Assembly (NCBI GenBank): GCA_031386685.1
Contig: JANNCQ010000085.1
Location: forward strand, 8,241-72,240
Length of the DNA: 64,000 nucleotides
Source of the DNA: Candidatus Altimarinota bacterium
GTDB taxonomy: Bacteria; Patescibacteriota; Gracilibacteria; BD1-5; UBA2023
Reading direction: 5' to 3'
The notes under the pieces are model-generated. The model was not told where the DNA came from and ran no database searches. It saw only the letters and a list, made by a program, of their open reading frames with translations. Below, in pieces: positions 4,558 to 62,769 of this stretch (within the stretch, counting starts at the first letter, position 1; each line of letters begins with the position of its first letter). The position numbers and the translations under genes are program-made.

Positions 4558-7305
4558 CTATTTTCAGTGACAACTTTTATACTTCTTCCCGCTACCACAC
4601 GGACAAGAGTCATTACGCCCGATTCCTGCATAGAGATTCTTTGAAGCTTCATTTGTCTGAACGATGCGGACTCTGGGTTCCATGAGGAGAGAATCCTCGG
4701 AATAATTTGTATGATTCATATGGCTAGCTGCAATGACCGCACCAGTATCGAATCAGGCATTTGCATTTTCTGCATATTTCGAAAGAAGGGTCTCCTCGAG
4801 ATCCACTTCATCTATAGATTCACGTGGTTTTGCAGTGAGAAGTCATTTTATGACTCTGAGTCCAACGGTATTAATGAGTATGACGAATTTATCATAAGCA
4901 CGCTCTTTATAGATAATCAGAGGATTCTTCTGGGCATATCCCTCGAAGGCAACTTCTTCACGCAGGTGAGCCATACTATCAATATGATTCATCCAGAGCT
5001 CATCTATGGCTGCAAGTGTAAGTCGTCTTTCAAACTCTGCAAACTCTTCTTCTGTTCCAGTATCTCTGAGAATCTCAATTTTTCCTGATAAAAGCGATAC
5101 AACACGTACTTTCGCCGCAATATAGTCACTGACATTTGAGAGATTATCGAGTGAAATAACTGTAGATTCTGCAAATTCGTTGATTGACTCGATGATCCGA
5201 GTTTTTTCATCTGAATCAAAAAAAGCTTCATCTCATATACTCAGATCCACTATGCGCTCAACTTCTCACTTGAGCATCTCGAGGACTTCCATATGAATAT
5301 CTGCTCCAGAGAGTATTTTTGCTCGTCGTGAGTATATAGCAAGACGATGATGATTGAGGACATCATCATACTCTAGAATATGTTTTCGTATATCGAAGTT
5401 TCGACCTTCTACTTGTTTTTGGATAGTAGTTATATTTTTCATGAGCATCTTACTCTCCACAAGAGGATCTCATTCTGGATGTGACTCAAAACTCGCTAGT
5501 ATGCTAAAAAGTTTATTTCCTCAAAATATGCGCATGATATCATCTTGAGGAGAGAGCATAAACTGAGAAAGTCCAGGATCTCATTGGCGACCAGAGCGAC
5601 CACGCAGCTGATTGTCTATTCGTCGTGTTTCATGCTTTTCTGTTCAGAGAACGTAGAGTCCTCCAAGAGGATACTCTTGGATTCATGCAGTACCTTGGAG
5701 TTTTACGGTTCATGTGAGAGTCCGTACACGCTCATCAATCTTGATATCTGTACCACGTCCAGCCATATTTGTAGCTATAGTGACTGCTCAGTATTGTCAG
5801 GCTGATGCTATTATCTCTGCCTCTCGGGAGTCTTGTTTTGCATTGAGTACCTGGTGAGGGACTCACTCTTTTTCGAGAAGTGCAGAGAGATATTCACTTT
5901 TTGCGACTGATACGGTACCTACTAGGATAGGCTGACCTTTCTCATGAAGTGCTGCTATGAGACGTACGAGATAGGCGAATTTTCATTTCTCACTTCGAAA
6001 AAGGACATCCCCACGATCGATACGTTTGAGGGGTTTATTCGTGGGTATACTTATCACCTCGAGGTGATATATTTTATAGAACTCTTCTTCTTCAGTTTTT
6101 GCTGTACCGGTCATGCCGGCAAGTTTCGGGTACAGACGGAAGTAATTCTGGAATGTGATAGAGGCGAGTGTACGAGATTCTTGCTGGATAGTTACTGATT
6201 CCTTTGCCTCTATCGCTTGATGGAGTCAGTCAGAATATCTTCGGCCAGGGAGTACTCGTCCTGTATGTTCATCAATAATGAGAATTTCATCATTTCTGAC
6301 AAGATAATCTATATCTCTTTTGTATACTGCTGAAGCTTTGAGGGAGTTTTCCACATGATGAAGATCATTGAAGTGTTGACTCACATAGATATTATCGACG
6401 CCGAGATAGGATTCGAGTTTTTTGATACCTTCCTCTGTGAGGGTAGCAGCTCTCTGTTTCTCATCAATTTTATAGTCAGTATTCTCCTCGAGAGATCGTG
6501 CGAATGCGGCAAATCGCACATATTTCGTCGTCGGTTCGCTATCTGGCGCTGATATGATAAGTGGAGTCCGTGCTTCATCTATGAGGATAGAGTCGACTTC
6601 ATCGACGATAGCGAGCCATTTCTTTCCCATAGTCTGTCGCTCACTGCGTATAGCCATATTATCTCTCAGGTAGTCAAATCCAAGTTCGTTATTCGTCGCA
6701 TAGACGATATCGCAGGCATAGGCATTTTTTTTCTGTTCAAAATCCTGTCCATGAGTGATCACTCCTGTACTTAGGCCGAGAGCAGTATAGATGATACCCA
6801 TCTCAGCGGCATCTCGACGAGCAAGATAGTCATTTACGGTCACGATATGGACACTTGCGGGTACAAGAGAATTCAGGTAAGCTGCTATCGTCGCGACGAG
6901 AGTTTTTCATTCTCATGTCCGCATTTCTGCAATATTTCCTTCATGCAGTGTCATAGCTCCAATGATCTGTACATCGTAGGGTATCATAGTCCACTCCACC
7001 ATATTCCCACCTCCTATATCGAAGCTCTGTCCATATATGAGTTCACATGCACGACGATGAAGAGCAAAAGCCTCATATTTTATCGATTCGAGAATTTCCT
7101 TTGCCTTCTTCCGATCATCCACATCATCCATATTCAGTCACTCAAAAAGAGACTGGAATTGATGAGTTTTTGCTTGTACTTGATCTATTGTAGAAATTTC
7201 ATCACGAAAGTGAGATTCGATGGATTTTACTTTTTCGAGATCTTTTTGGTATGATTTGAGCTTTTTGGTGCTTGGGTCTCAGAATATAAGGGAAATAAGA
7301 TTCAT
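4558..7305 (-). CDS. secA: preprotein translocase ATPase SecA
   Basis: [15 protein letters not shown]... Walker A reads MRTGEGKTLVAT, with both Gly encoded by TGA (6913-6915, 6907-6909). C-terminal Zn finger [13 protein letters not shown]. 916 codons, fragments 5266.., 6226.., 6913.. all in one frame. Stop TAG at 4558-4560. Confidence 0.95.
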
Positions 7306-7490
7306 GGGAGAGTAGGGGGAGAATTATAGAATATAGAGCAGAGAATGAAGCGTATGTGAGAATACCCAGTGCGTGAAAATCCGCAGAATTATACAAAAAA
7401 ATCTTGTTTATTCAAATCAGTGAGGTGAAAAAGAAGTGAATAGTATTGACGAATAATTAATAATCCCTCTAACTCTAGAGGGATTATTAA

Positions 7491-8819
7491 TTATTCGAAG
7501 AACTCATCTACGATTTTACGGTATGCGAGACGATTTTTGATATCTTCGTAGTAGGTATCACCTGGGACGAGCTTCGCTCGGAGACGCTCAACGACCTCAG
7601 CACTTCCATACGTAGAAATTATTTTTTCTACTTCCGTTTTTATTTCTTCATCTGTGGGTTCAGTGCCTTTTGTTTCTCGTATTTTTCGGAGAAGCAGCTC
7701 TGCCTTCAGTCTTCGCTCTGCTTCAGGTCTTACTACTTCATCTTTGTACATTTCTACAGATTTCTTCACATGATCGAGATATTGTTTCATATCATACCCT
7801 TGTTGTTCGAGATTGCTCGCATGTTCACGGTAGACTTGCTCGACTTCATTTGCGATAAGTTCTGGTCCAACTTCGAACACTGCTACCTCCATCATCTGCT
7901 TCATAAGCATATCTTCATCTTTGGCACGAGCTTCAGACTCTTTTTTATTCTTTAATTCTTCTTCTAGAATTATTTTCAGTCCTGCTAGATCAGTACGCTT
8001 TCCACGAAGTTTCTCGATGAAGTCTTCATCGAATAATGGAGTATGAGGCTTCTCAATTTTCTCTATATTTGCGATAAAGTGCACTTTTCGTCCCTTAAAG
8101 TCGTCTGAGTGGTAATCCTTCGGGAATGTGATATCAAATGCTACTTCTTCTCCCATTTTAGCTCCAATAAGTTTTTCTTCAAAACCTGGGATAAATGAAT
8201 TCGATCCGATCACGAGAGGGTAGTTTGGCACACGAGTTTCTGATATTGCTTCACCACCCTTCTTATCGTATCCTTGTGCAGAGATAGTAGCACGGTCTCC
8301 AGACTCAATACTGAGATTCGAAGTATCTGCTCCATCATCGCTATGATGTCCTGCTTCATGGAAGTGGGTGAATCTTTTTTTGATCTCTGCGAGTTCTAAT
8401 TCTACTTCTTCTTTTGTGACGGATATCAGAGTCTTTTTTATTCGGATTGTATCCATCTTCTTTTCATCGATCACTATCTCAGGGAATACCTCGACTTCGA
8501 GCGTGAGCTCGATCGGATCAGTACTTTTGACTTCGGTGATCTGACCAGGAGATACGGGGAGGATATTTTCTTTTTTGAGAATTTTTGGATAGATCTTCCC
8601 GATGATAGCATCGAGAGCCTGTTGCTCGATCATAGCCTCTCCATATTCACGGATGATGACATGATCAGGGATGTTCGATCCTTGTTTGAATCACTTCACT
8701 TTTCCTTTGCTTCGGATTGCTTCGAGGACATGTTTCTTCGCTTTTTCGAGTTCTACTACTGATTCTTTGATTTGGATAGAGAGGGTGTAGCTATTTTTAC
8801 GAGTGACGGTACTTTGCAT
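7491..8819 (-). CDS. tig: trigger factor
   Basis: ORF 7491..8633 extends upstream through one TGA to ATG 8819 (MQSTVTRKNSYTLSIQ...GKVKGFKQGSNIPDHVI). FKBP-type and C-terminal domains are recognisable. Confidence 0.9.
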
Positions 8820-36603: not shown

Positions 36604-36780
36604 ATGAAAGTCCTCGATCGTGGTCAGTATCGTGAGTCGAAGGTCTGCCTCGTATGCGGTCGACCTTTTTCTATGAGGAAAAAGTGGAAAAAAGACTGGG
36701 AATCTGTACTCTATTGCTCAGAAAAATGCAAGAAAAACAAAAAATCATCCTCATCTGGTACAAGCGGGATCTCCGTATAA
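36604..36780 (+). CDS. DUF2256 domain protein (small zinc-ribbon protein often linked to photolyase genes)
   Basis: MKVLDRGQYRESKVCLVCGRPFSMRKKWKKDWESVLYCSEKCKK... 59 codons, stop TAA. Confidence 0.7.
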   Translation: MKVLDRGQYRESKVCLVCGRPFSMRKKWKKDWESVLYCSEKCKKNKKSSSSGTSGISV

Positions 36781-38266
36781 GTGATCACCGTCCTTTGGCC
36801 GATGCTCTCGCTCGATGAAAGAGTCAGCATATCCCAGTGATCGCTTTCTATAGCTTCGAGCCTCGTGTGACGACTGCTCCTGATTTCTCAGATTTCCATA
36901 GACAGTTCATAGAAGATTCACTTCATGATCTTTCTCATCACTCAAGGATATATGAGTCCAGCTTCTTATCTTCGAGCGGAATATATCTGATGTGATGAAG
37001 TATATCCTCGAATACTATGATATCGAGCATATTTTCTCTCATGAAGAGACGGGAAATGCTCTCACCTATGATCGCGATATCATGATGGGGAAGTATTTAA
37101 AGTCCAAAAATATCCCCTGGACAGAGCATCCCACAAACTGAGTCGTCCGACGTCTCAAGTCTCGTGATGACTGGTCGAAGATATGGAATAGTCGTATGAT
37201 AACCCCGATACTTCCTCCCCCAGAGTGACAGAAGTATTTTTCATCATGACTCGTCTCTGATTCCTGGAAGAGCGAGGGCAGGAATCCTCATATCCAAATG
37301 TGAGGAGAAGTAGAGTGACAGAAGACTCTTGCTTCATTTCTTATCTCACGTGGGAAGCGATATATGGGTGGGATGAGCCGACCGATCGAAGGACAGGAAG
37401 CGAGCTCGCGTATATCTGCCTATCTCGCGTATGGATGTATCTCCCTGAAGCAAGTCGTCCAGATGACGTGGATTCGTATGTCAGACCTGAAAGAAAAGTG
37501 AGATCAGAGATTTCTCCGGTCACTTCAGGCATTCCACTCCAGGCTTCACTGGCAGTCACACTTCATCCAGAAGCTTGAAGATGAGCCGAGACTCGAATAT
37601 ATGAATGCCATGAAGCTCTATGATATGATCCGTACGAAGTATGATGAAGATATCATCTCTTCAGTGGAATATGCACGTACGTGAGTACCATTTATCGATG
37701 GGATCGTGAGGCAGCTCAAAGCGACTGGGTGGATCAATTTTCGTGCTCGTGCGACTCTGGTATCTTTTGTCAGTTGTACCTGTATGCAGCCCTGGCAGGG
37801 GAGATTTGCTCACTGGCTTGCGAGACTATTCACTGACTATGAGCCAGGGATCCACTATATGCAACTCCAGATGCAGTCTGGGACTATGGGGATCAATACG
37901 ATCCGGATATATAATCCTATGAAGCAGCTTCATGATAAGGATAGTGATGGACTCTTCGTCGATGCATATCTACCAGAGCTCGCCAAGCTCCCGAAGCATC
38001 TTCAGGCTGAGCCATGGAAGATATCAGGCATGGAATCTATAGAGTATGACTTCATCCTTGGGCGTGACTATCCTCATCCTGTCATCGATGTCGAAGAGGC
38101 GAACAAACAAGCTAGGGAGATTCTCTATGATATGAAGTCGCAGATCGATCCTCGAGTAAAAGAGTCTATCGTCCGAAAGCATGCGAGTCGCAAATCACCC
38201 CTGCGTAAGAAAGCAAAGAAGAAAGAAAAAGAAAATCTAGATACCAATCTTTCACTTTTTGACTAG
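36726..38266 (+). CDS. cryptochrome/photolyase-family protein whose frame is interrupted by a -1 shift near 36941 (pseudogene, sequence error or recoding)
   Basis: The N-terminus MQEKQKIILIWYKRDLRISDHRPL...SLHDLSHH is in frame 0 (stops at 37098). The rest, LKDIGVQLLIF...HEETGNALTYDRD...GVVRRLKSRDDW...RLHWQSHFIQKLEDEP...TGWINFRARA...IRIYNP..., is in frame 2 (open only from 36902). The start lies inside the 3' end of DUF2256. Confidence 0.7.
37222..37324 (+). repeat. 90-nt in-frame segment bounded by 13-nt direct repeats inside the photolyase-family gene
   Basis: agagtgacagaag occurs at 37222-37234 and 37312-37324, exactly 90 nt apart. Internal hairpin gattcctg-gaagagcgaggg-caggaatc. Encodes ...EGQK[YFSSGLVSDSWKSEGRNPHIQMGGEVEGQK]T... 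Confidence 0.6.
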
Positions 38267-38275
38267 AATATTTCT

Positions 38276-39997
38276 ATGAAAAAAGAAATCTCTCAAAAAC
38301 AAGAAATTCGAGGAAGTGAAGATTTTTCGCAATGAATTTACTGATCTGTAAATGAGTGAGAAAAATCTAATACTGCCGAAGAAGCTCGCGGTTTTTCAGT
38401 GATTTCTAAAGCTCAGTGGATTCTCTATGATCAGTGTAATATACAGTATATCGAAGAATGAGTGACCGATATTTTTTTCATACTCTTCACGGGAGTTCGC
38501 ATAGTATCTCCAGTAGGAGATCTCAGCTTCAATATCCGCAGTAAGATCGCCGAATACGCTATCGCAAAAGGGTTTCTCACTGAGTGTGAGAATCTAGGAT
38601 TTCGTACTCATTGGATAGAAGCTCAGAGTTACAAAGATGGTATACTAGAATTCGTAATAAAAACAGGAATCACTGATATCATATTGATGCGATCGAGTGA
38701 AGAGTATCTCGTAAAAAAGATCGAGAAATATATACTCCCATGAGTATCATTTCGAGTATTTCCGAATCGACAGTTTCTCATAGATCCTGAGGAGTTCCGA
38801 GAGAGATTCGAGAAGCCTCCGATCATGGAGACATTTTACCGGTATATGCGAAAAAGTCGTGACATCCTCATGGAAGATGATGGGAAGCCCGTATGAGGAA
38901 AGTGGAACTATGATAGTGAGAATCGGTCGTTCGATAAGACTCATACTCCAAGTTGGAACTGGAAGGTGAGAGATACTCAGTATATCGATGAAGCCAAAAG
39001 ATACTATGGTGCTCAGGATATCGAATTCTCACTTCCTGTGACGCGGAGTGATTCTCTGTCGCTCCTTCAGTACTTCCTCGAATATCACTATCACGACTTC
39101 GGACGCCTCGAAGATGCGATGTATCAGGATGATATGCGAGTCCACCACTCGATGATTTCGACAGCGATGAATTTCTGACTCATTACTCCTCTCGAAGTCA
39201 TCCAGTCCGCACTTGGGTATCATGCACCCCTTTCGAGTGTCGAGGGGTTCATCCGGCAGATCCTCGGCTGGCGTGAGTATATGAGGCAGTACTATCTCTT
39301 CTACTATGATGATATCTATATGCAGAATGCACTCGATCATCACGATAAGCTTCCGAAGGAGTGGTGGAGCTATGATGGATGATGAGGAAAAGCCCAAAAA
39401 TCACAAGAGTGAGTGATTTCTCAAAAACAAGAAATTCGAGAAAGTGAAGATTTTTCGAAGAGAGTTTACGACCATCTAAATGAGCAAGAAAAATCTGATA
39501 ATGACGATGAAGTTCGTAGCTTTTCAAAAATCACAATGATGAATTGTGTGGATACTGTACTGGGTAGAGTACAATCCGAGAATTATTCGCATCATATCGA
39601 ACGACTCATGATCATCGGGAACTATACACTCCTTAGAGGATATCATCCACATGAGGTGAATCGGTGGTTCTGGGAGATGTATAGTGATGCATTCGAGTGG
39701 GTCGTATCTCCGAATGTCCTCGCTATGAGTCAGTATAGTGACGGAGGGAGACTCGCGACGAAGCCATATATCTCAGGCGGGACCTATATCGAGAAGATGA
39801 GTGACTACTGTAAGGTATGTCAGTATAGTGTGAAGGAGAAGACTTGCCCTATGACCCATCTCTACTGGGATTTTGTCGATCGTAATCAGTCACTCTTCGA
39901 GAAATGACGGACTCCCTATGTCCTCTCTACCCTTGCGAAAGTCGATATCGAGAAGATCCGACTTGCGAAAGAAATATTCATCCATAAAACCCTCTAA
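38276..39997 (+). CDS. FeS-BCP-type cryptochrome/(6-4) photolyase-like protein (COG3046 family)
   Basis: ...PIMETFYRYMRK...GKWNYDSENR...EGFIRQILGWREYMR...YSHHIERLMIIGNY...WFWEMYSDAFEWVVSPNVLAMSQYSDGGRLATKPYISGGTYIEKMSDYCKVCQY...CPMTHLYWDF (four Cys for an Fe-S cluster). Four fragments are in one frame. The true start may lie downstream of the R1 repeat, around 38400. Confidence 0.85.
38285..38406 (+). mobile_element. R-family MITE-like repeat, copy R1
   Basis: About 75 percent identical to 39413..39534. Terminal inverted repeats agaaatctctcaaaaac / gtttttcagtgatttct. Confidence 0.65.
39413..39534 (+). mobile_element. R-family MITE-like repeat, copy R2, in frame inside the FeS-BCP gene
   Basis: gtgatttctcaaaaacaagaaattcgagaaagtgaagatttttcg...cttttcaaaaatcac. 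Encodes VISQKQEIRESEDFSKRVYDHLNEQEKSDNDDEVRSFSKI. An 11-nt direct repeat caaaaatcaca occurs at 39395 and 39525. Confidence 0.65.
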
Positions 39998-39999
39998 AT

Positions 40000-40503
40000 A
40001 TGCGTAAACCCTGGAATCTCCCATCCTATCCCGTCTACTCACTTCTCACGGAGGATACTCTTACGAGCAATTCTCAAATAGAGATATTCGATGAGCCGAG
40101 ATACAATATGAATATTATGACGTACGTGATCCCTGTGAGTATGCAACCGAAGCACTATATCATCGCTCTTTATCGTGATACTCAGTCTCTCGCGAACTGG
40201 CAAGTGACGCATAGAGGTATCCTCCAGATCCTCGCTCCCGGACACTCTTCGCTCGTACGAGTCCTCGGGAAGAAGTCAGGGAAGTCCTATGATAAGATGG
40301 CATATCTGAAGAAAAAATGACTCCTCACACTAGAGAATCATCTTTCATGAATTGCTGGATATATAGAACTCGAAGAGATCGAGAGACTTCCTGATGGTGG
40401 ATGAGACCACGAGCTCTATCTCTGTCGAGTCATATCATCGAAGACGTATCATGAAGATGTATTAACTACGGGGGTATTGGTGGAAGAAGGAGTGATACTC
40501 TAG
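40000..40503 (+). CDS. flavin reductase-like (FMN-binding split-barrel) protein
   Basis: ...NMNIMTYVIPVSMQPKHYIIALYRDTQSLANW...LAPGHSSLVRVLGKKSGKSYDK... Reads through TGA to TAG at 40501-40503. Confidence 0.7.
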
Positions 40504-40562
40504 AAAGATTTTGCTTTCAAAGGTATATAGTGATATATTTCTTATAGATTTATCATATTCTC

Positions 40563-41300
40563 ATGAGCATACTCAAACTTGATCCACATAATCCACTTTC
40601 GATAGATATATATGGCCCGTATGGTTTTCATCCAATAGTAGATGATACTCGTGATCATGCGCGATGGATCCTCGAGGAGTCTTTGCCGTGGGTCGATGCA
40701 AAAATAATAAAAGATATAGAAATCGAACTAATGTATGCTACTTCCGATAATATCTCATGAGTCCCTCAGTATCCTATAGGTATGAAGGCCGTACTCAGAA
40801 AAGAGGTTACTCTCATGCTGAGAGAGTCGCAAAATTATCTAAAGAGGAAGATGTGACCAGAATATTCTCTTCGTATCCTAGATGCTGGAAGGCCTGATTT
40901 TGTGCAGAAGATTATGTTTGATTGGTGCCAAGCACAAGAAGACAAGAGTATGCATACACTTTTTGCAGATCCTGAGCGTGGTTCTATGCATACTTACGGT
41001 TGTGCGGTAGATGTCACGATTACGAAGAATGGAGTACCACTAGAAATGGGTACAAAGTTCGATGATCCGAGTAAAATGGCAATGCCAAAATACGAATTAC
41101 TGCTCCTTGCAAGTGGAGAGCTAACTATTGAAGTCATAGAAAATAGAGAGCTACTTCGTGATGTTATGGAATATTGATGACTTTCGAATATTGATAATGA
41201 ATGGTGGCATTTCGAGACGCCAGATGATGAAGATGATCTCGGAAGACGAAAAAAAATACGAGATGGTTCACTACCGAGATTAAATAAGTGTTTTTTTTAA
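40563..41300 (+). CDS. VanX/DdpX-like D-Ala-D-Ala dipeptidase (peptidase M15D)
   Basis: ...IELMYATSDNISG...ILDAGRP...SMHTYGCAVDVTI...DNEWWHFE. 246 codons. Confidence 0.75.
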
Positions 41301-41434
41301 AAAATCTCTAGTTTTCATGTGAGTGACTTTTCTGAAATGAATACTAACCAGCCAATATGAAAAGTATTTTTTTTATATGAGTAAGAATGCTGATTTTCTA
41401 AATAGTTTTCACTCTATTTTTCCTCTATATAGAG

Positions 41435-41462
41435 TTGGCAATCTTCATATTTTCTCTATAAT
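41435..41462 (+). promoter_or_regulatory. sigma70-like promoter giving a near-leaderless transcript
   Basis: TTGGCA (41435-41440), 16-nt spacer, TATAAT (41457-41462). ATG at 41469. Confidence 0.6.
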
Positions 41463-41468
41463 CTGACT

Positions 41469-41804
41469 ATGCCCAAAGTGAAACTCGAACATATCGATGC
41501 CCTCTCCAGGTGAAAAAAATCAGGAATCAGACTCGGGAGTCGAGCCGTGCCACACCATCTCTATGTCTATGAGCGTGAGGAGTATGAACGAGCCCTGAAG
41601 CGAGGATATCTCATAGTCGATAAGACCGATCGAGTAAATACCCAAAATCTCTGGATGCTCGTCTGCGAATCTCGCATGTCCGAATGCCTCATCCTCCATA
41701 AGATTGATGAGAGATGAGTCGTGACGTCGGGTGCAGGGACGATATTCGTCGGACTCCTCTCGGAAGCCAAGACGTATCTGAAAAATATGAAACTCACAAA
41801 ATAA
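41469..41804 (+). CDS. hypothetical protein (111 aa)
   Basis: 112 codons, two TGA, stop TAA at 41802-41804, strong promoter. The antisense ORF 41567..41797 was rejected. Confidence 0.5.
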
Positions 41805-41831
41805 TCAAATCATATTACTCCTGAAATAATC

Positions 41832-42959
41832 ATGAAAATCCCTCACTATACATTCCCGACAGACCGAGCAAGTATCGAGGCACGTATCGACTCTATTGAT
41901 CCCATAGCTTATGGTAAAGATCGCAACTATCTCACCGGGAATGTGACGATGCTCTCCCCGTATATATCGAGAGGATTCATCACTATTCGTGAGATACGTG
42001 ATCGAGTCCTTGCTCGGGGATTTCGTGCACATCAGATCGAGCAATTCCTGAAGGAGCTTGCTTGGCGAGAATATTTCCTCCGAGTATGGGAATGACTTGG
42101 GACCGATCGTATGATGGTCGATATCCGCTTCGATCAGGAGGATGTCCTCACGCATGATATGCCACGAGTATTCTCGGATGCGAGTACAGGGATTGAAGCC
42201 CTCGATAGGTGAATAGAAGCTCTCTACGAGACAGGCTATATGCATAATCATCTGCGTATGTATATCGCAGGGATCGCATGTAACATGAGTGGAGCTCACT
42301 GGAGGACTCCGAGTCATTGGATGTACTATCATCTCCTTGACGGAGATCTCGCGTCCAATACGTGTAGCTGGCAGTGGAATGCCTGAGCTTTCTCTTCGAA
42401 GAAATATATCACGATCCAGACTAATATCAATCAGTATACCGGATCGACTCAGAGAAAGACTTTTCTCGATCGAAGTTATGAAGATATCTGGACGACGAAA
42501 GTCCCTGATCATATGCGAGAATATATACCAATTCAGTTCTCGACCCCACTTCCTGAGAGTGACGTATTTACCCTTGATCCAAGTCTGCCACTCTGCATCT
42601 ATACCAATTACTCTATCAATCCAAGTTGGAAGCAAGATATCCAATCTCATCGTATCCTCGTACTTTCGCCTTCACATTTTGCACGATTCCCTGTGTCAGA
42701 GAAAGTCATAGACTTCATCGTCCGTCTCGCGAAGGATAATATCTCGGGAATGCAAGTATTCGTATGAGAGATCGAGGATCTCAGAGATGTGTATCGAAAA
42801 ATCTCACAAAAAGAGATATACCTCGTCGATCATATCCTCTACTCGGGCATCACAGGAGTCGCGAAGACAGCTTATCCCTATATGATTCCTGAAGTGAGTG
42901 CGTATTGTACCTCATTTTTTGCTTATTGGAAGCAGGTTGAGAGGTATATGATGAGATAA
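41832..42959 (+). CDS. photolyase-family protein starting directly with the FAD-binding domain, followed by an alpha/beta-like domain (apparent permuted order)
   Basis: ...LSPYISRGFITIREI...FLKELAWREYFLRVWEG...TGYMHNHLRMYIAGIACN...LLDGDLASNTCSWQWNAG..., then ...LCIYTNYSINPSW...ILVLSPSHF...VIDFIVRLAKDNISGMQVFVGE. 376 codons; frame scan clean. Confidence 0.75.
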
Positions 42960-42968
42960 TTTGATTCC

Positions 42969-44423
42969 ATGTATTTTTCCTATATACTCGCTTCCATGCT
43001 GAAGAAGATCCTCATCACCCTTGCTCTCCTTATTTGTATAGGTACTTTTGCAGTCTTCGGTTTTGCTATTTATACTGAGCGTCAAGAGTTCATAGAGCAT
43101 ATCTCACTGCTCTCATCGCAAGATCTTATCCATCAGACTGAGCTCACCACGCTGAAAGAGAAGGTCACTCTCCTCGAATCACAGTACGCCCAAGATGAGA
43201 AATATCTCACCTATTCAGGGACACTTCACTATATCCCTCTCGACTGACTCCTCGATACTACCGCTTCAGGATTTCTGATGGCAGATGCCTATGATGCTGT
43301 CAGGTTTCACAATACTTCGACAGAGCGTATCACTCTGGATATATACGATACACAAGATATAAGCACCTCTCCACTTTTCAGTCTTCAGATAGAGAGTGGT
43401 GCAATCAATTTTTTCTCACTGAAGAAGTCGGGGATGTATGCATATAAAACAGGCGCACAAAAATGAGTGATCATCATCGGGAAAGAATACTTAGATAAGT
43501 ACAATCTTGATTCCTTCCTAAAGAAAGAGATATTCCCGCTTTTTGATCCGAAGGATCAATCGTCTATCAAAAAAGCACTCCTTCACTTTAAGGAGATCAC
43601 GATGAATAATGTTCTCATCTCGAAAAACTGCCATAACCTTGCTCATGATATCGGACATGAGTCGTTCCAGAAATACGGGTTCTCTGTCGCGATCACGTGA
43701 TGACAAGATGATGTCTGTGCCTGATGATATACGCACTGAGTACTCGAATCGTATTTCGAGTCCGAGCCCAAGCTCGTAGAAAATCCAGAGTCTGCCTGTT
43801 CGACTATTGAAGGAAAGAAAAAAGGATCATGTTTTCACTGAGTCGGTCATGGACTTATGTTCATATCTGCTAATGATATCGCGGCTTCTCTCGAAGGCTG
43901 TCGTAAACTTTCTACTCCTGTTTGGAAGAATCGATGTGCTGAGTGAGTATTTATGGAGCTCTACTCCTGAGATCCGAAGCATGCATTTTGACAAATCAAA
44001 TACTCCACGGGAGACCTCTTTGTTCCTTGTATCACTTATGGAAGTGGAAGTGAGTGATATGTCTGTGGTTTCTATGCTGGACTCGGGTATATGAGATATG
44101 CAAGTGAAGACTATATAGGAGCACTCATCGCATGTGAAAAATGATGAGTATATACTCCTATGTGTATACGATGAGTCGGTCGTGAAATCGCTAAGAGATA
44201 CATCGGAGATGCTCTCAAGCTCGAAAGTATCTGCTCGAATCTTTCAGATCAAGTTGCAAAAATAAACTGTATAAATTGAGGGGTCAGCTATACGAAACTT
44301 CAGTTCGAAGATGAAGCACATCTCATAGAAGGTTATTGTCGTGGATTCCAGTCATTTTCGGAGCTTTGTACCGGAAAAAAGATAGACGAAACGACTCTAG
44401 AATCATCAGGATCATTACTCTAA
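42969..44423 (+). CDS. membrane-anchored hypothetical protein with repeated Cys-x-x-Gly/His motifs
   Basis: Fragments 42969.., 43278.., 43467.. are in one frame and continue to TAA at 44421-44423 (485 codons). N-terminal TM helix. Repeats CHNLAHDIGHE, CFHGVGHGLM, CAEGVFME, CGFYAGLGY, CIRGVGREI, CINGGVSY. Confidence 0.6.
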
Positions 44424-44430
44424 AACACTT

Positions 44431-45756
44431 ATGGCAAAACTCCAAAATCGTAGCCTCTTCATCTTCCGTCAGGATCTTCGTACTCATGATAATACTGCGC
44501 TCATCGAAGCGATGAGAAATTCTAAAGAAGTATTTCCAATTTTTATCCATGATACTCGTGCGATAGAGGACTTCGGTATGGATGATCCTCGATTTGGCTT
44601 CATCCGAGAAGCACTTGAGTCGATCGATACTGAGCTTCAGAAAGTATGATGAAGACTGACCGTATACCGAGGAAATCCAGATGATATCGTATGAGAGATT
44701 ATAGAAAAATATCAGATTAATGCGATCTATCTGAATCGGTCATATTCTCCAAGAGGGAAGGAGCGAGATGAGGGTATTATGAATCTTTGTGACTCGAGTT
44801 GAGTCAGTTTTCATTCATTTCAAGACTTTCTCATGGTAGAGCCAGAGGAGTGTGAACAACGTAAGGTATTCACCCCATATTCGATGCTCTGGAAGAAATT
44901 TATCATAGCGCATCCTGAGAGAATTGAGATTCATGCATTCGATGGAACTCTCGCAAAATGGTATATTCCAAATGATCGACGAGAAATCGGAGATACCATC
45001 ACAGTACCACATCATCCACTCTGGACGATGCAGTTCGGTCATGAGCGCTTAGAGAGAGACTTTTCTCACTATGTTGATCTTCGCAATCTTCCAGCTATCG
45101 ATGGTTCTACACGACTCTCTCCGTATATCCGATTTGGGATATTCTCGGTACGTGAGATATATGAGAAAGTGAGAGAAAATCCGACACTCCTCTCTGAGAT
45201 TATTTGGCGAGAGTTTTGGTATCAGATAGCGTATTATTTTCCATTCACCTACTCTCTCGAATTCCAGGAACGTCGTCGGACGATCGAGTGGGATAGAGAT
45301 GAGTCGAGCTATGAGTGGGAGATGTTCCAAAAATGAAAAACGTGATATCCTCTCGTCGATGCTGCAATACGTCAACTTATACAGACCAATTGGATGCACA
45401 ATCGACTCCGTATGGTGGTAGCCTCATTCCTCACGAAGAACCTCGGGGTCGACTGGCGAATGGGAGAGAAATGGTTCCGGAAATATCTCATCGACTATGA
45501 TGAAGCAGTGAACTTCGGGAACTGGCAGTGGAGTGCAAGTGTGGGGGCTGATCCGAAGCCTGTGAGAATCTTCAATCCGCTCCTCCAATCAGAAAGATTC
45601 GATACAGAATGTAAATTCATCAAAAAATACCTTCCAGAACTAGAAGGTATTGATCCAAAAAGAATTCATACTCTTGATCTGAAGGGAGTCTATAACGCTC
45701 CAGTGGTCGATCAGAAAGAGAGTGCTGCGAAGGCGAGAGAGAGATATAGGGGATAG
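44431..45756 (+). CDS. phr: deoxyribodipyrimidine photolyase (class I CPD / DASH-like)
   Basis: LFIFRQDLRTHDNTAL...STRLSPYIRFGIFSVREI...WREFWYQ...[36 protein letters not shown]...NFGNWQWSAS...RIFNP. Three fragments in one frame. Stop TAG at 45754-45756. Confidence 0.9.
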
Positions 45757-52978: not shown

Positions 52979-55627
52979 TTATGGAAGCTGATAGAATCCT
53001 CATCGGGAATACACGGTTCCAAGGTCCCTTGAGAGTATAGCCGGAAAAAGTATATCACACTCTTTTATAAGTGCTCAAAATGATATCTTATTTGCACAAG
53101 GACATTGTTCGCATATAGGTGTTGCTATTATGAGTCATTGAGTTTTTGCTTTTTCGAGTATACAGGCATTATTTTCGAGCCTTCCGAGAATTCCTATAAT
53201 CGTAGGACATCCATTGTCTTTTATTGTGCCTGATACAGTAGGACAAAGATCGTTCGCATCAGCTATCCCATCGCCGTCAGTATCTTTTGTCGCGATCCTC
53301 ACCGTCATACTTGACTCTGCTTTCTGTCCTTTGGCATCAGTCACAGATACTACTACAGTATATGTCCCTGGAGTATTAAATATATGAGAAGGAGATGATC
53401 CCCCTATGCTTGTAGGTGTTCCATCTCAGAAGTTCCAGCTATACGAGAGTGGTCACACTCAGAGAGCATAGCTCGAAAAATCTATACTTCCTCCTGCTCC
53501 TATGCTCAGAGTACTTGCTCCTATAGTTACTGAAGGAGGAAGAGTCCCTCCTATACCAATACCTCATCATCCACCTCCACCTGCTCCACCTCCACCACTA
53601 CTTCCACCTCCACCACTACTTCCTCCTCAACCAGATACTCATCCGCCATTTCCACCACCAGAACTCCCACCCCCTCCACCTGTTCCTCCCCCACCACTAC
53701 TTCCTCCTCCTGTACCTCATCCACTTCCATTCCCATTTCCTCCGACAGGAGGATTCCCCGCAAGAGTACTTCCATCTCAGATAGAGATCGTCGTAGAAGG
53801 ATGACTGAGGATAGTTCCACTTACTCGGTCTCGTATGAGAAGATCGACATTCCAGTTTCCTACTCCGAGGCTTCCTGATGGAAGTGTCCCCCCATTTCCA
53901 CTTATGACCCTTCCAGTCACGCTATCTACTGCAGTCCATGTATAAGTATAGTCTCCGGGATCTGAAGTACGAGGAGTGAGATTAAAACTCTGTCCACTAC
54001 TAAAACTACTTCATGGGAGTACTTTTCAGTCGGAACCTATGACTTGTATAGTACTTCAGAGAGTAGCAGTATTTCATCCAGTATTACCAGTATTTCCTCA
54101 TCAGATTATTCCAGGAAGTCCAGGATTTGTATTTATTCCAGGTTCGATTCATTTTGTATAATTATTGATATTGATTACTGGACATCACTTATTAGTCGAA
54201 GATCCAGAAATATTGGGACAGAGGTCATCTTTGTCCGTGACGCCATCGCCATCACTATCCTTATCTCCTGTCACTTCGATGATCACTTTTGTTTGTACGG
54301 TTTGACCATCTTTGTCTATGAGAGTCACACTTACTGTATATATCCCTGGAGTAGTATAGGAGTGACTTTTATCAGTTATATCTTTCGTATTGTTTCATGT
54401 AAGGACAGATGACTGTCTGATCCCATCTCAAAAATCCCACATATACGTCAGAGGTCATGACCCGAGAGCAAAACTCGAAAAGTCTATCGACCCACCTACA
54501 CCGACACTAAGCTTATTGACAGAAAGCATGATGGATGGATAGATTTTTCCATCGATAGAGCTATTTTTTTTATCACCACCATTACCTATAGGATCTATAC
54601 TTCATCATAGGAGTGACTTTCCATCAGTGATCAATATTGTCGTCGTCGGGGAGCTCACTCATCGATTGGTCGCTCTGTCAATGATATCGAGTTCTATACT
54701 CCAATCTCATGCTCAAAGTGTGCTCGATAATAGGCTCGGATCTGTCCCAGTGACGACTCGATTCGTCGCTCTATCTATAGCTGTCCACTCATATCGATAG
54801 TTACTTATTTCTGCGTCCATGAGCGGTACAATTCGAAATTTTTCTCCTAAAGCGAATACGCTCTTATTTATACGGTTTCCACTTTCTCAGAGAATGACGA
54901 GAGAGCTTGCGAGAGTATTTTCTATACCAGCTTTGGCACACTGATTATAATCAAACATTTTTGCCGCCATGATCACAAATTCTCCCCTCGTGATAGACTC
55001 ATCCGGGGCTATTGTATTATTTGCTTTCAATATGAGAATCCCTGCATTTATACCCTTTACAGCATATCCATACCAATAATCAGAGATATCATTTATAGTG
55101 ATGGTTTTTTTGAGTGTCTTATTGAGATCTTCATTCCAGAGATTTGCTTGACGAAGGAGCATCGCTGCTGCCTCCATACGTGTAGTCTTATTGTTTTGAC
55201 AGAAGGGAGTACTCTGGAATCTTCCTCCATCCTGACACGATACATTCCCGGTAGTATCGAGGGTATATCACTGCACGATCTTCTTATCGGCAGCATAGGC
55301 GATACAATAGTATACTGGATGAGTTTTACTCAGATCGACAAAAGGAGATATCGCATATGAAGCAATATCTCATGGAGTGGGAGTGATACATCGCCTACAG
55401 GATACACTTACAGAGAGTCCTACGAAGTCACCACGATCAATCGTATCTTCAGGTCGAAAAAGATGAGATCCGTCATCATAGAGTATATAGTTTTTATAGA
55501 GGGTTTCTATAGAAGAATAATATGGACTCGTCGTAGTGATATCAGTATAGGGGAGTGCTCCTGCAGAGACACTTCATCGTCCCAAAATAGAGAAAAAAAG
55601 AACGATGAAAAGGAGAAACTTTTTCAT
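52979..55627 (-). CDS. large secreted surface protein: signal peptide, two SLH-like repeats, PKD domains, thrombospondin-type-3-like Ca-binding repeats, Gly/Ser-rich linker
   Basis: An 883-codon frame was scanned codon by codon with no TAA/TAG. MKKFLLFIVLFFSILG...; ITRGEFVIMAAKMF; DKDSDGDGVTDKDDLCP and DTDGDGIADANDLCP; YSWNFGDGT (Gly = TGA at 53426-53428)...GTYTVVVSVTD. Confidence 0.8.
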
Positions 55628-55717
55628 AGTCCTGATTATAGCAAGATAGAGCGACTTTTCAAGAAAAAAAAATCCTAAATTACCTTATAACTTTACAAAT
55701 ATATATTTATACTTTTT

Positions 55718-59607: not shown

Positions 59608-59736
59608 AGAAATTGATAGGATAATATAACCCACTATATATAAAAAAAATCAAAAATCGACAAATTACCAAAAATATAATTGACTATATATATATGCATG
59701 TATAATGATAATCCTTCAACAAATCTATTGAAAACC

Positions 59737-59889
59737 ATGGATAATTTCTGGAAAATTTTTGAGGTACTTTTTGTCCTCGTTGTGGTAGTGGGATGCTGGA
59801 AAGCATATCCACTACTCAAAGAATCTTGGAATGCACCAGATTCAGATGACGACCCACCATGATTACCTTATTCATGGAGGGCGACATAA
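59737..59889 (+). CDS. possible small membrane protein (50 aa)
   Basis: MDNFWKIFEVLFVLVVVVGCWKAY... Followed by hairpin acaagtcctc-gaaatt-gagggcttgt at 59919-59944. Confidence 0.3.
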
Positions 59890-60008
59890 ATCCCATCACA
59901 AAATAAGGTGGGAAAACAACAAGTCCTCGAAATTGAGGGCTTGTTTGACGTTTCCTATTATAAATTAAGATCCAATATTTGACATTTATATATTTTATAA
60001 AATAAGTA

Positions 60009-60037
60009 TTGACGTATGAAGATATATATGCTATAAT
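60009..60037 (+). promoter_or_regulatory. consensus sigma70-like promoter
   Basis: TTGACG (60009-60014), 17-nt spacer, TATAAT (60032-60037). Confidence 0.65.
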
Positions 60038-60061
60038 TATTTTGCTCTTTTTGTAAAGCTT

Positions 60062-60541
60062 ATGAAACATCTCGTTCCAAGACAAAGTCAGAATGGAAAG
60101 CAAGAATGGCTCAGCGCACTTTTCACGCTTCTCGTCCTCACTGGTATATACAGCTCGATGGATAATTTCTCTTCTTTTGCAAAGTCAGATTCATCTGATC
60201 CGCCGAAGACTGCCTCATGAGAAATATCCTCAGTCGCACCGCCCTACTGGAATAGTACTATGGGCTATGGATTTCGATCAGTCAAATGAGACACCTATAC
60301 ATCTTCTGGAAATCAGGAAATGGATATGGTGCAAGTACGACCTTCTGGACGGACGAGCATAGATCGTAAAGATGTACAAGTATCCTATTATAAGAATACT
60401 CCTATAGATCAGATCGATCAATCTCTTGTTCCAGGAAGTCCGCGAGCCTACTCACGACTTCCACATGGTATAGCGGTGATACAGTGAGATCTCGACTCGC
60501 CGAGTGCAAAGACGATATTCTCTACCCTTCATTCTGATTAA
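60062..60541 (+). CDS. hypothetical protein with one N-terminal TM helix (159 aa)
   Basis: 160 codons open under table 25, bracketed by a consensus promoter and a strong terminator. Confidence 0.5.
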
Positions 60542-60597: not shown

Positions 60598-60600
60598 TTG

Positions 60601-60716
60601 AAAAATCTGAAAATGACGAATTTCATTGTCAGAAAAAAGTTCTCTCGATCAATTGTCTCTATCTAAGCGTACTTCGAGTCATTTTTTCTTCCTCGAACTA
60701 CTTGTTTTTGAGATTC
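60601..60716 (-). mobile_element. R-family MITE-like repeat, copy R3 (intergenic)
   Basis: Minus strand gaatctcaaaaacaagtagttcgaggaag...cattttcagattt matches the 5' 40 nt and the termini of R1/R2. The middle is divergent. Confidence 0.55.
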
Positions 60717-62722: not shown

Positions 62723-62726
62723 TAAT

Positions 62727-62758
62727 AAAAAAGACTCAAATATAGTTGAGTCTTTTTT
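62727..62758. terminator. bidirectional rho-independent terminator between convergent pyrH and the PKD-protein gene
   Basis: agactcaa-atatag-ttgagtct flanked by an A-run upstream and a T-run downstream. Confidence 0.7.
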
Positions 62759-62769
62759 ATGGGATAATT

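Follow-up and report, generated by a model that had tools for sequence, protein, structure and literature searches.

A segment of the FeS-BCP photolyase-like gene in the window (the whole 64,000-nucleotide stretch of DNA analysed here) is most probably, at a likelihood that can be put near three in four, one of three window copies of a hairpin repeat of about 120 nt, which resembles the palindromic elements of Rickettsia, belongs to a family in Gracilibacteria-type genomes using genetic code 25, and is tolerated in frame by its host. The segment in question is copy W2. The gene and the three copies are placed as follows:

38276..39997, plus strand: FeS-BCP / PhrB-type (6-4) photolyase-like gene, 573 codons in code 25
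38284..38407, plus strand: copy W1, a 124-nt hairpin with three in-frame TGA codons (nhmmer E 2.2e-29)
39413..39534, plus strand: copy W2, a 122-nt unit in frame with zero TGA codons, peptide VISQKQEIRESEDFSKRVYDHLNEQEKSDNDDEVRSFSKI(T) (nhmmer E 2.5e-26)
60600..60714, minus strand: copy W3, diverged but full-length (nhmmer E 4.9e-17)

The host protein combines an N-terminal DPRP domain (Pfam PF04244, E 1.4e-27) with a photolyase-like helical domain, as FeS-BCP proteins do, and comparison with the PDB returned PhrB (4DJA) and CryB (3ZXS) at E values of about 1e-74, with both halves covered; its orthologues are 65-77% identical. Four cysteines of the cluster type, C424, C512, C515 and C524, are almost invariant across the homologue alignment, and the last is presumably the counterpart of PhrB C454, which we take to be the fourth cluster ligand of that protein. 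In the 4DJA alignment the other three fall on PhrB C350, C438 and C441, which are ligands of the [4Fe-4S] cluster (PMC4619345). The reading frame contains 11 in-frame TGA codons and is unbroken only with TGA read as glycine; its PV[TGA]GKWN segment aligns to PVGGRWN of PhrB, which puts a TGA at a conserved glycine. TGA is the commonest stop-like triplet of the window, which is translated with code 25 (TGA = Gly), and other host genes of the repeat contain 5-14 in-frame TGAs each. An earlier note on this DNA had overlooked both this code and the second in-frame copy, W1. The start of the gene at ATG 38276 is taken from the orthologues, and a start at GTG 38399 instead would place W1 in the leader.

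Both W1 and W2 are in-frame insertions in this one gene, and they are read in the same element phase. The W1 block (38285-38410, 126 nt or 42 codons) lies at the N-terminus after codon 3, between native Met-Lys-Lys and Ala-Gln-Trp; orthologues begin MKKAQWILYDQ, their empty sites read ATGAAAAAGGCTCAA and ATGCAAAAAGCACAA, and the duplication at the junctions is at most 4 nt (AAAG). W2 lies between the equivalent of PhrB Trp342, an electron-transfer residue near the surface (PMC4619345), and the first Fe-S cysteine, in the following surroundings:

39365..39367, plus strand: codon of Trp364, which aligns with PhrB Trp342 (4DJA), just upstream of the W2 insertion
39380..39412, plus strand: eleven codons of the loop before W2 (GGGKAQKSQEG), where orthologues have 6-8 residues in total
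39395-39405, plus strand: upstream copy of the 11-nt direct repeat caaaaatcaca, within these loop codons
39525..39535, plus strand: downstream copy of the repeat, overlapping the 3' stem half of W2 (AAATCAC) and native ATC ACA (Ile-Thr)
39545..39547, plus strand: codon of Cys424, counterpart of the first [4Fe-4S] ligand (Cys350) in the PhrB alignment, 4 residues past the W2 insertion

Alignment to PhrB/CryB-type proteins delimits the W2 insertion between PhrB residues 343 and 346, where 54 residues stand in place of 2, and this alignment puts it in a probable surface-loop position beside Trp342 and Cys350. Compared with the closest orthologues the region is 44 codons longer, and these two figures refine an initial estimate of about 50 extra residues. 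The inserted stretch is open and encodes VISQKQ...FSKIT, in agreement with the claim of a peptide without stops. Just 5' of it are in-frame TGAs at 39380, 39383 and 39410, and the AAATCAC of the upstream loop could pair with GTGATTT at the 5' end of W2. PhrB and CryB thus differ from the window protein by its 54-for-2 loop and its 42-residue N-terminal insert. Neither W1 nor W2 occurs in any of the 120 best homologues. The orthologues at two other loci, L031 and L032, have neither copy (the empty W2 site of L032 reads GGAGAAATCACAGGTATGAAT), and L032 instead carries one in the adjacent flavin-reductase gene.

The similarity of W2 to the sequence at 38285-38406 was confirmed, with the identity raised from some 75 percent to 80-82% over 111-112 nt (W2 39416-39526 against W1 38288-38398; BLASTN E 5e-23). 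A third copy at 60601-60716, proposed from matching ends, also exists, and proved to be the full-length, diverged, minus-strand W3; the ends had matched because the unit is palindromic. W3 is intergenic, 68 nt upstream of the co-oriented minus-strand ORF 59684-60532, and its coding phase is interrupted by a stop. The spread of these copies bears on whether W2 could have arisen by local duplication, or by a native expansion of the FeS-BCP loop in this lineage, with no mobile or repeat-family character. The two best copies do lie 1.1 kb apart in one gene, and the loop between WW and MNC is variable among homologues, at 7 to 14 residues; however, the explanation is refuted to the point of a negligible likelihood by occurrence of the unit at 60.6 kb and, in over 20 other assemblies, in unrelated genes and intergenic DNA; the bases specific to the W1/W2 subfamily also recur in the copy that a related genome (L018) has in its MiaA-like gene.

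Beyond the window, the family comprises about 40 further loci of the unit (115-128 nt) in more than 20 Gracilibacteria-type assemblies, so that the dispersal suggested by the earlier note is borne out. A search with a 20-base pattern hit 30 loci in genomes; 26 belong to Gracilibacteria, 'Peribacteria' or Patescibacteria assemblies, with several contigs per assembly, and metagenomes gave 10 more. The pattern was exact, so that the segment it covers looks more conserved than it is and copies that have diverged are undercounted. nhmmer E values across the copies were 1e-17 to 1e-39. Viral contigs were searched for the family with no match, no Rfam family matches the window copies or near-consensus copies, and no description of the repeat was found in the literature on Gracilibacteria, in which a closed-genome paper describes another repeat, PTD.

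Roughly one in three of the copies seen lies within a gene, in frame. The hosts belong to at least nine different housekeeping gene families, all copies being in sense phase 0: Mfd (three genomes, same site), QueA (two genomes) and FeS-BCP (twice), together with LysA-like, Lgt-like, MiaA-like, helicase-like, Fic-like and flavin reductase genes. Candidate antisense copies within genes were dismissed, their ORFs looking like artefacts of the opposite strand. All 10 in-gene copies analysed have a length that is a multiple of three and are stop-free in the one phase. Under code 25 they are open in 10/10 cases, against 10/24 for non-genic copies, and under the standard code in only 2/10; their in-frame TGAs average 1.8 per copy. 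The family consensus itself has one stop-free sense frame, hydrophilic (GRAVY -0.72) and with 2 TGA, which gives a peptide of roughly 41 residues, ISQKQEVRGRKIFSKGAYGyVSDGEINFSNEEIRSFSEI. A profile of this peptide run against 5.8 billion proteins gave only 15 candidates and 5 short fragments, which was of no use for counting the family, although the QueA loci and the third Mfd locus were reached through the fragments. The gene calls P0122-P0125 end exactly at a TGA of the element.

A mechanism can be proposed in which a copy landing in a gene would survive only in one orientation and phase; the surviving phase would be free of TAA and TAG and would be read, with TGA as glycine, as the hydrophilic peptide. 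W1 would then be tolerated at the extreme N-terminus and W2 in the variable surface loop before the first Fe-S cysteine. That the insert is translated is suggested by its frame and openness. The alternative that it goes untranslated, being cut out of the mRNA or skipped over by the ribosome (compare the T4 gene 60 gap and mitochondrial 'byp') with the hairpin as the signal, would account for a stable hairpin within ORFs and for orthologous copies that are conserved at the nucleotide level and not at that of the peptide. It is nevertheless very improbable. The stop-free, single-phase filter seen in every in-gene copy, against stops in 14/24 non-genic ones, would be expected only of an insert that is read; W2 moreover keeps its frame despite having lost its hairpin, and no matching take-off or landing codons were noted.

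The whole unit forms one long imperfect hairpin of 35 pairs, in which 96% of cells are paired, compared with 34-55% when the partners are slid. Double changes occur in 16 pairs, and 0/500 shuffles attain the values observed. The strands are asymmetric, with 48 G.U against 13 A.C, and sense-strand RNA is the more stable in 25/29 copies; this suggests that the form selected or propagated is a single-stranded sense-strand hairpin, of RNA or ssDNA. Copies within genes fold as well as intergenic copies. W1 folds at -37.6 kcal/mol (z -4.3), whereas W2, with z -0.25 / -1.3, has a mostly decayed hairpin and folds least well of the 29 copies.

Orthologous in-gene copies are 3-5 times less diverged than the 4-fold sites flanking them, evenly over codon positions: 0.076 against 0.29 for QueA, and 0.19 against 0.60 and 0.097 against 0.53 for Mfd. 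The junction residue is common to the Mfd copies, with only 51% identity between the host proteins. Concerted evolution was considered as the source of this conservation and rejected, since the identity between copies of one genome (0.757) matches that between copies of different genomes (0.745), which argues against gene conversion and shows no homogenisation. Conservation at orthologous sites without homogenisation fits a function at the nucleotide level better than inert selfish DNA, and, with divergence so far below that of neutral sites, the copies may have such a role. The FeS-BCP copies themselves give another picture: W1 and W2 differ at 11/9/10 sites by codon position and by 3 synonymous versus 17 non-synonymous codon changes, so that no sign of selection attaches to their peptide. 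With the W2 hairpin decayed as well, the insert is probably a tolerated surface loop and no functional module of the enzyme; "tolerated" seems the defensible word, and the proposal that the element had been domesticated is not sustained.

The evidence on structure and divergence might also be read to mean that the hairpin has a function in cis as a nucleic-acid element which selection keeps both inside and between genes, the peptide being a mere price paid inside ORFs. Such an element could act as mRNA structure (in stability, RNase processing or translation pausing) or as a DNA or ssDNA site bound by protein. The low divergence of orthologous copies, the shared Mfd junction, the equal identity within and between genomes, the strong covariation with its sense-strand G.U excess, and the equal folding of in-gene and intergenic copies all favour this, and it is the foremost of the alternatives, though an unlikely one. 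Against it, W2 has lost the hairpin and neither W1 nor W2 is specially conserved; presence and absence among related genomes shows no obvious pattern, Rfam offers no match, and no consistent placement relative to genes was seen. The orthologous pairs were, in addition, found by similarity, which makes decayed copies invisible, and old copies may have been re-inserted independently or "refreshed". A little more tentative still is the idea that the repeat is a structured RNA or ssDNA module under purifying selection with a dual use in coding sequence, as hairpin and as readable peptide, a module whose spread into genes had to await the reassignment of TGA to glycine.

A classical MITE, that is, a non-autonomous element left by deletion from a DDE or HUH insertion sequence and moved in trans, with the 11-nt repeat as its target-site duplication (TSD), is a more doubtful explanation again, even though the unit is small, multicopy, polymorphic for presence and bounded by inverted termini. 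The terminal inverted repeats gtgatttctcaaaa / ttttcaaaaatcac were verified, those of W2 taking the form GTGATTTCTCAAAAAC...GCTTTTCAAAAATCAC and the family core the form TCTCAAAAAC...GTTTTTCAGA, and TA or CTA often adjoins the stem ends. Beyond the conserved core, however, the termini vary in sequence while keeping their complementarity, unlike a transposase-binding inverted repeat. (A copying of the outer variable stem from the target, suggested by an AAATCAC native in L032 at the W2 site, was rejected as a general rule, both stem halves of W1 lying within the inserted block.) The repeat caaaaatcaca is present twice at W2 and does not bracket it, the downstream copy lying inside the 3' end of the element. 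With a spacing of 130 nt (no multiple of 3), overlap with the element end and native codons, and no family-wide flanking repeat, it makes no convincing TSD. Across 38 copies the longest flanking direct repeats were 3-7 nt, no better than in shuffles, so that a TSD of fixed length is lacking, as the short W1 duplication would also indicate. The window and about 340 kb of loci contained neither a transposase-flanked longer version nor an autonomous insertion sequence sharing the termini, and a divergence of about 25% between paralogous copies implies that there was no recent burst. The label "MITE-like" is thus not upheld beyond the inverted ends, and in the preferred reading, that of a tolerated palindromic repeat, "mobile" rests on presence and absence at orthologous sites together with dispersal. 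A promoter or start codon carried by the repeat was likewise considered and set aside; the conserved 5' flank motif TCTATRAA..., about 14 nt before the stem, is inconsistent in phase and absent at W1 and W2.

Among known systems the closest analogue would be the Rickettsia palindromic elements, which are described as deteriorating. According to passages of PMC10969869, these elements (Ogata et al. 2000, 2002) occur in frame in many unrelated housekeeping genes as well as in intergenic DNA, are compatible with the fold and function of the host protein, and have a mobility mechanism that is unexplained. Both are multicopy palindromes of about 100-150 bp that fold into one long hairpin, and both lie in frame in unrelated genes with a constant element frame and a conserved peptide. 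The family described here is found in another phylum, in CPR/Gracilibacteria, and the likeness is one of features; it is accordingly not filed as a member of RPE-1 to RPE-10. It differs also in that its open phase needs TGA as glycine, that its hairpin has extensive covariation, and that orthologous copies are well below the neutral rate. Correia/NEMIS and ERIC/IRU elements are about 100-155 bp, often co-transcribed with genes, and their transcripts fold into long hairpins; Correia elements, with their 26-bp terminal inverted repeats and TA duplication, lie in the great majority between genes, in contrast to the present family, with no consistent TSD and its substantial in-gene fraction. Both groups, of Neisseria and enterobacteria respectively, are multicopy imperfect palindromes, with ERIC copies occasionally within genes (PMC10969869). 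Prokaryotic MITEs can also fuse in frame, as in QMITE1 of Coxiella (PMC5896051, PMC10969869), and resemble the present repeat as small, non-coding-looking units with inverted ends that extend or interrupt ORFs in frame; they are defined by terminal inverted repeats, TSD and descent from an insertion sequence, and neither TSD nor parent was found here.

In summary, protein-coding palindromic repeats have so far been treated as a peculiarity of Rickettsia, and an independent family in CPR bacteria would show that they recur. The sole open hydrophilic phase is tied to TGA as glycine, so that the fate of the repeat is linked to a change of the genetic code; if the tentative dual-use reading is true, that change would have let a structured nucleic-acid element into protein-coding space. 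Compensatory changes maintain the hairpin, the strand bias points to a single-stranded form, and conservation at the orthologous sites in Mfd and QueA makes the question of junk or function a testable one. In practical terms, the inserts would add 40-residue loops to enzymes, as in the FeS-BCP beside its electron-transfer Trp and Fe-S cluster, and together with recoded TGA they fragment gene calls in public databases.

Under standard translation, TGA codons break up the photolyase-like gene of the window; with TGA as a sense codon it becomes a single frame of 573 codons, from ATG 38276 (a start inferred from orthologues) to TAA 39997, with 11 in-frame TGAs. That the gene is open solely in this way, and that TGA aligns with glycine (PV[TGA]GKWN against PVGGRWN of PhrB), shows that the source organism uses code 25, and the closest homologues as well as all related loci belong to Gracilibacteria-type assemblies. 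The protein is an FeS-BCP: it has the Pfam domain DPRP and matches PhrB (4DJA) and CryB (3ZXS) with E values near 1e-74. The gene is one of four of the cryptochrome/photolyase family within 9 kb (36604-45756) of this small-genome CPR bacterium, with a flavin-reductase-like gene and a D-Ala-D-Ala dipeptidase interspersed:

Photolyase-family genes of the window
36650-38266 (+), upstream photolyase, frame-split
38276-39997 (+), FeS-BCP, DPRP
41832-42959, FAD_binding_7-only gene
44431-45756, full DNA_photolyase + FAD_binding_7 gene

The first of these, directly upstream of FeS-BCP and overlapped at its start by a small zinc-ribbon-like ORF (36604-36780), lies in two reading frames that break near 36,930-36,940; residues 6-104 of the orthologue at the syntenic locus L031 match frame +3, and its residues 93-548 match frame +2. 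Loss of 1 nt within a CTTTCTC context would fit the break, which may reflect a pseudogene, an error in sequencing or programmed frameshifting.

Comparison with 17 orthologues (65-77% identity), which start MKKAQWILYDQ and in which 6-8 residues separate WWxYxG from ITxMNC, revealed two insertions in the FeS-BCP gene. The window N-terminus reads MKK-[EISQKQ...GFSVIS]-KAQWILYDQ, W1 being a 42-codon insertion immediately after codon 3, with empty sites in two syntenic orthologous loci (ATGAAAAAGGCTCAA and ATGCAAAAAGCACAA) and a junction duplication of AAAG at most. W2 adds 44 codons relative to the orthologues, and the HMMER alignment to PhrB breaks exactly there (query 156-365 with PhrB 121-343, query 420-547 with PhrB 346-478), which places W2 between the equivalents of Trp342 (Trp364) and of Cys350, the first cluster cysteine (Cys424). 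In PhrB, electrons are transmitted by Trp342, "located close to the surface", and C350, C438 and C441 are Fe-S ligands (PMC4619345). The element's peptide motif occurs in none of the 120 best homologues, in which the corresponding loop has 7-14 residues.

BLASTN of the window aligned W2 39416-39526 with W1 38288-38398 (80-82% identity over 111-112 nt, E 5e-23), a match far stronger than any other repeat in the 64 kb, and a profile built from family members recovered three copies:

Copies found in the window by the family profile
38287-38407 (+), W1, E 2.2e-29
39413-39533 (+), W2, E 2.5e-26
60600-60714 (-), W3, E 4.9e-17

The repeat pair and third copy first noticed from the sequence are therefore real, the third on the opposite strand, and direct reading of the region confirmed the inverted termini. 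The 11-nt direct repeat said to bracket W2 is also present (39395-39405 and 39525-39535), but is not credible as a target-site duplication, because its two copies are 130 nt apart, the downstream one consists of the 3' half of the element's stem joined to Ile-Thr codons native to the gene (the empty W2 site in the syntenic locus L032 reads GAAATCACA), and no family member examined has flanking direct repeats beyond chance. Unrelated to the family are two near-perfect self-complementary palindromes at 7450-7497 (48 nt, 92%) and 62725-62760 (36 nt, 94%), which may be intergenic terminators. Tandem 15-18-nt CCACCN-rich repeats (53547-53745) encode a Gly-rich low-complexity segment of a 901-codon minus-strand ORF (52979-55684).

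A search with 20 bases of the conserved 5' arm matched 30 loci in the genome collection (26 of them in Gracilibacteria, 'Peribacteria' or Patescibacteria assemblies, on up to four contigs per assembly) and 10 true copies in metagenomes, but no viral contig; the repeat is a dispersed family and not a local duplication. Further copies were found beside the orthologous FeS-BCP gene in L032 and by way of truncated database proteins. Every host gene checked has 5-14 in-frame TGAs. No Rfam family matches the element, and the searchable literature yielded no description of it. In four database proteins (P0122-P0125), standard-code gene calls stop exactly at the element's in-frame TGA (…KGAYGPVSD|TGA); element and code together thus yield truncated 'hypothetical proteins'. 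Many copies scored intergenic (L006, L013, L021, L009, L002, L029, L041, L014, L005) lie within 0-10 nt of a neighbouring stop codon, often in antisense and frequently with a 3' flank beginning CTA or TA; it may be common for the element to provide or shift the ends of genes, or it may prefer TA-containing targets. Many genic and non-genic copies (e.g., L030, L019, L017, W1) have in their 5' flank a loose motif, TCTATRAA / TTGCAAAA, some 12-20 nt before the stem. This motif may reflect a preferred target, resemble a -10 box or extend the element at its 5' end.

Copies within genes share one orientation and phase:

Genes with in-frame copies
Mfd (three genomes, identical residue junction)
LysA-like decarboxylase
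Lgt
MiaA
QueA (two genomes)
Helicase-like protein
Fic-like protein
Flavin reductase
Window FeS-BCP (two copies)

Apparent ORFs around antisense in-gene copies were rejected as opposite-strand artefacts. Neither TAA nor TAG interrupts the coding phase in any of the 10 in-gene copies scored, and the same holds for 10 of 24 non-genic copies; under the standard code just 2 of the 10 are open, owing to a mean of 1.8 in-frame TGAs per copy. Of the sense frames of the family consensus, a single one is both stop-free and hydrophilic, ISQKQEVRGRKIFSKGAYGYVSDGEINFSNEEIRSFSEI (GRAVY -0.72, two TGAs). The one open antisense frame, with a GRAVY of about 0, is much less hydrophilic and has many Phe, Ile and Leu residues. 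Such a filter on phase and openness would be expected if the inserts are translated, and counts against splicing or bypass. Related genomes differ in the sites they have occupied. The window carries both W1 and W2 in FeS-BCP and no intact copy in the flavin-reductase gene next to it; L032 shows the reverse, with a flavin-reductase copy (4560-4673, downstream of FeS-BCP) and none in FeS-BCP, and L031 has neither. The corresponding site in the window (40055-40110) and in L031 holds a shorter variable segment (e.g., AATTCTCAAATAGAGATATTCGATGAG), which, from a faint likeness to the 5' arm, may be a deleted element remnant.

The Mfd copies (L007 5263-5384, L024 7182-7305, L046 2606-2770) share the junction …P(R/K)|I(I/V)ITHGQM in proteins down to 51% identical (L007/L024), and the outer stem of L007 is unlike those of L024 and L046; either a very old insertion has been conserved at this site, or site-specific insertion has recurred there. 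The L046 copy and a MiaA-like copy (L018 160-330) carry, at a common point in the 3' arm, an extra nested in-frame hairpin of about 51 nt (...GAAATTC|CGAGATTATC...GATAAGATCGTATGCAARGCTCG|CAGTTTTTCAG), with apical sequences that differ yet are complementary; the closely related L024 copy is without it.

The whole unit folds as one long hairpin, with 35 pairs predicted (RNAalifold, 24 copies). Standard pairs fill 96% of cells against 34-55% with slid partners, 16 pairs show both-side changes against 4-8 in slid controls, and none of 500 shuffles matched any observed measure; the outermost stem differs among copies (GG/CC, GAA/TTC, GT/AC, GGGGG/CCCC...) with complementarity kept. G.U exceeds A.C by 48 to 13 (31 to 13 without one G.U-dominant pair) and in 25 of 29 copies the sense-strand RNA folds more stably than the antisense, an asymmetry whose p-values are indicative only because cells are not independent; it suggests a form in which the sense strand is single-stranded (RNA or ssDNA) and not a symmetric duplex or cruciform.

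Whether such a hairpin is selfish or serves its host was judged from W1 and W2 and from orthologous in-gene copies. The "domesticated" loop of the earlier note finds no sign in the FeS-BCP gene: W1 and W2 differ to an equal degree at the three codon positions (11/9/10), with 17 non-synonymous and 3 synonymous codon changes, and W2, with a hairpin weaker than that of any other copy (z -0.25 to -1.3, against -3.5 to -4.3 for the strong hairpin of W1), has lost both hairpin and TGAs. W2 is best accounted for as a tolerated selfish palindrome. In orthologous in-gene copies, however, divergence is far below that of the flanking four-fold sites and is spread equally among codon positions:

Divergence of orthologous copies, element against flanking four-fold sites
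QueA, L047/L048: 0.076 against 0.29
Mfd, L007/L024 (Mfd only 51% identical): 0.19 against 0.60
Mfd, L024/L046: 0.097 against 0.53

Within-genome gene conversion fails to explain this conservation, since paralogous copies, about 75% identical, are as similar within a genome (0.757) as between genomes (0.745). What remains is purifying selection at the nucleotide level, recurring replacement of older copies, or ascertainment bias, the last because only still-recognisable copies are visible and most were located with an exact pattern. A functional cis-acting hairpin accordingly keeps substantial weight, though it is judged less likely than the tolerated selfish palindrome.

The family is not classed with the Rickettsia palindromic elements, its closest known analogue, which belong to a different taxon. 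As a MITE it fails on target-site duplications, and no parent IS appeared in the window plus about 340 kb of loci. What is new is the phylum, an open phase that depends on the TGA = Gly code, and how strongly the hairpin covaries while copies at orthologous sites diverge slowly.
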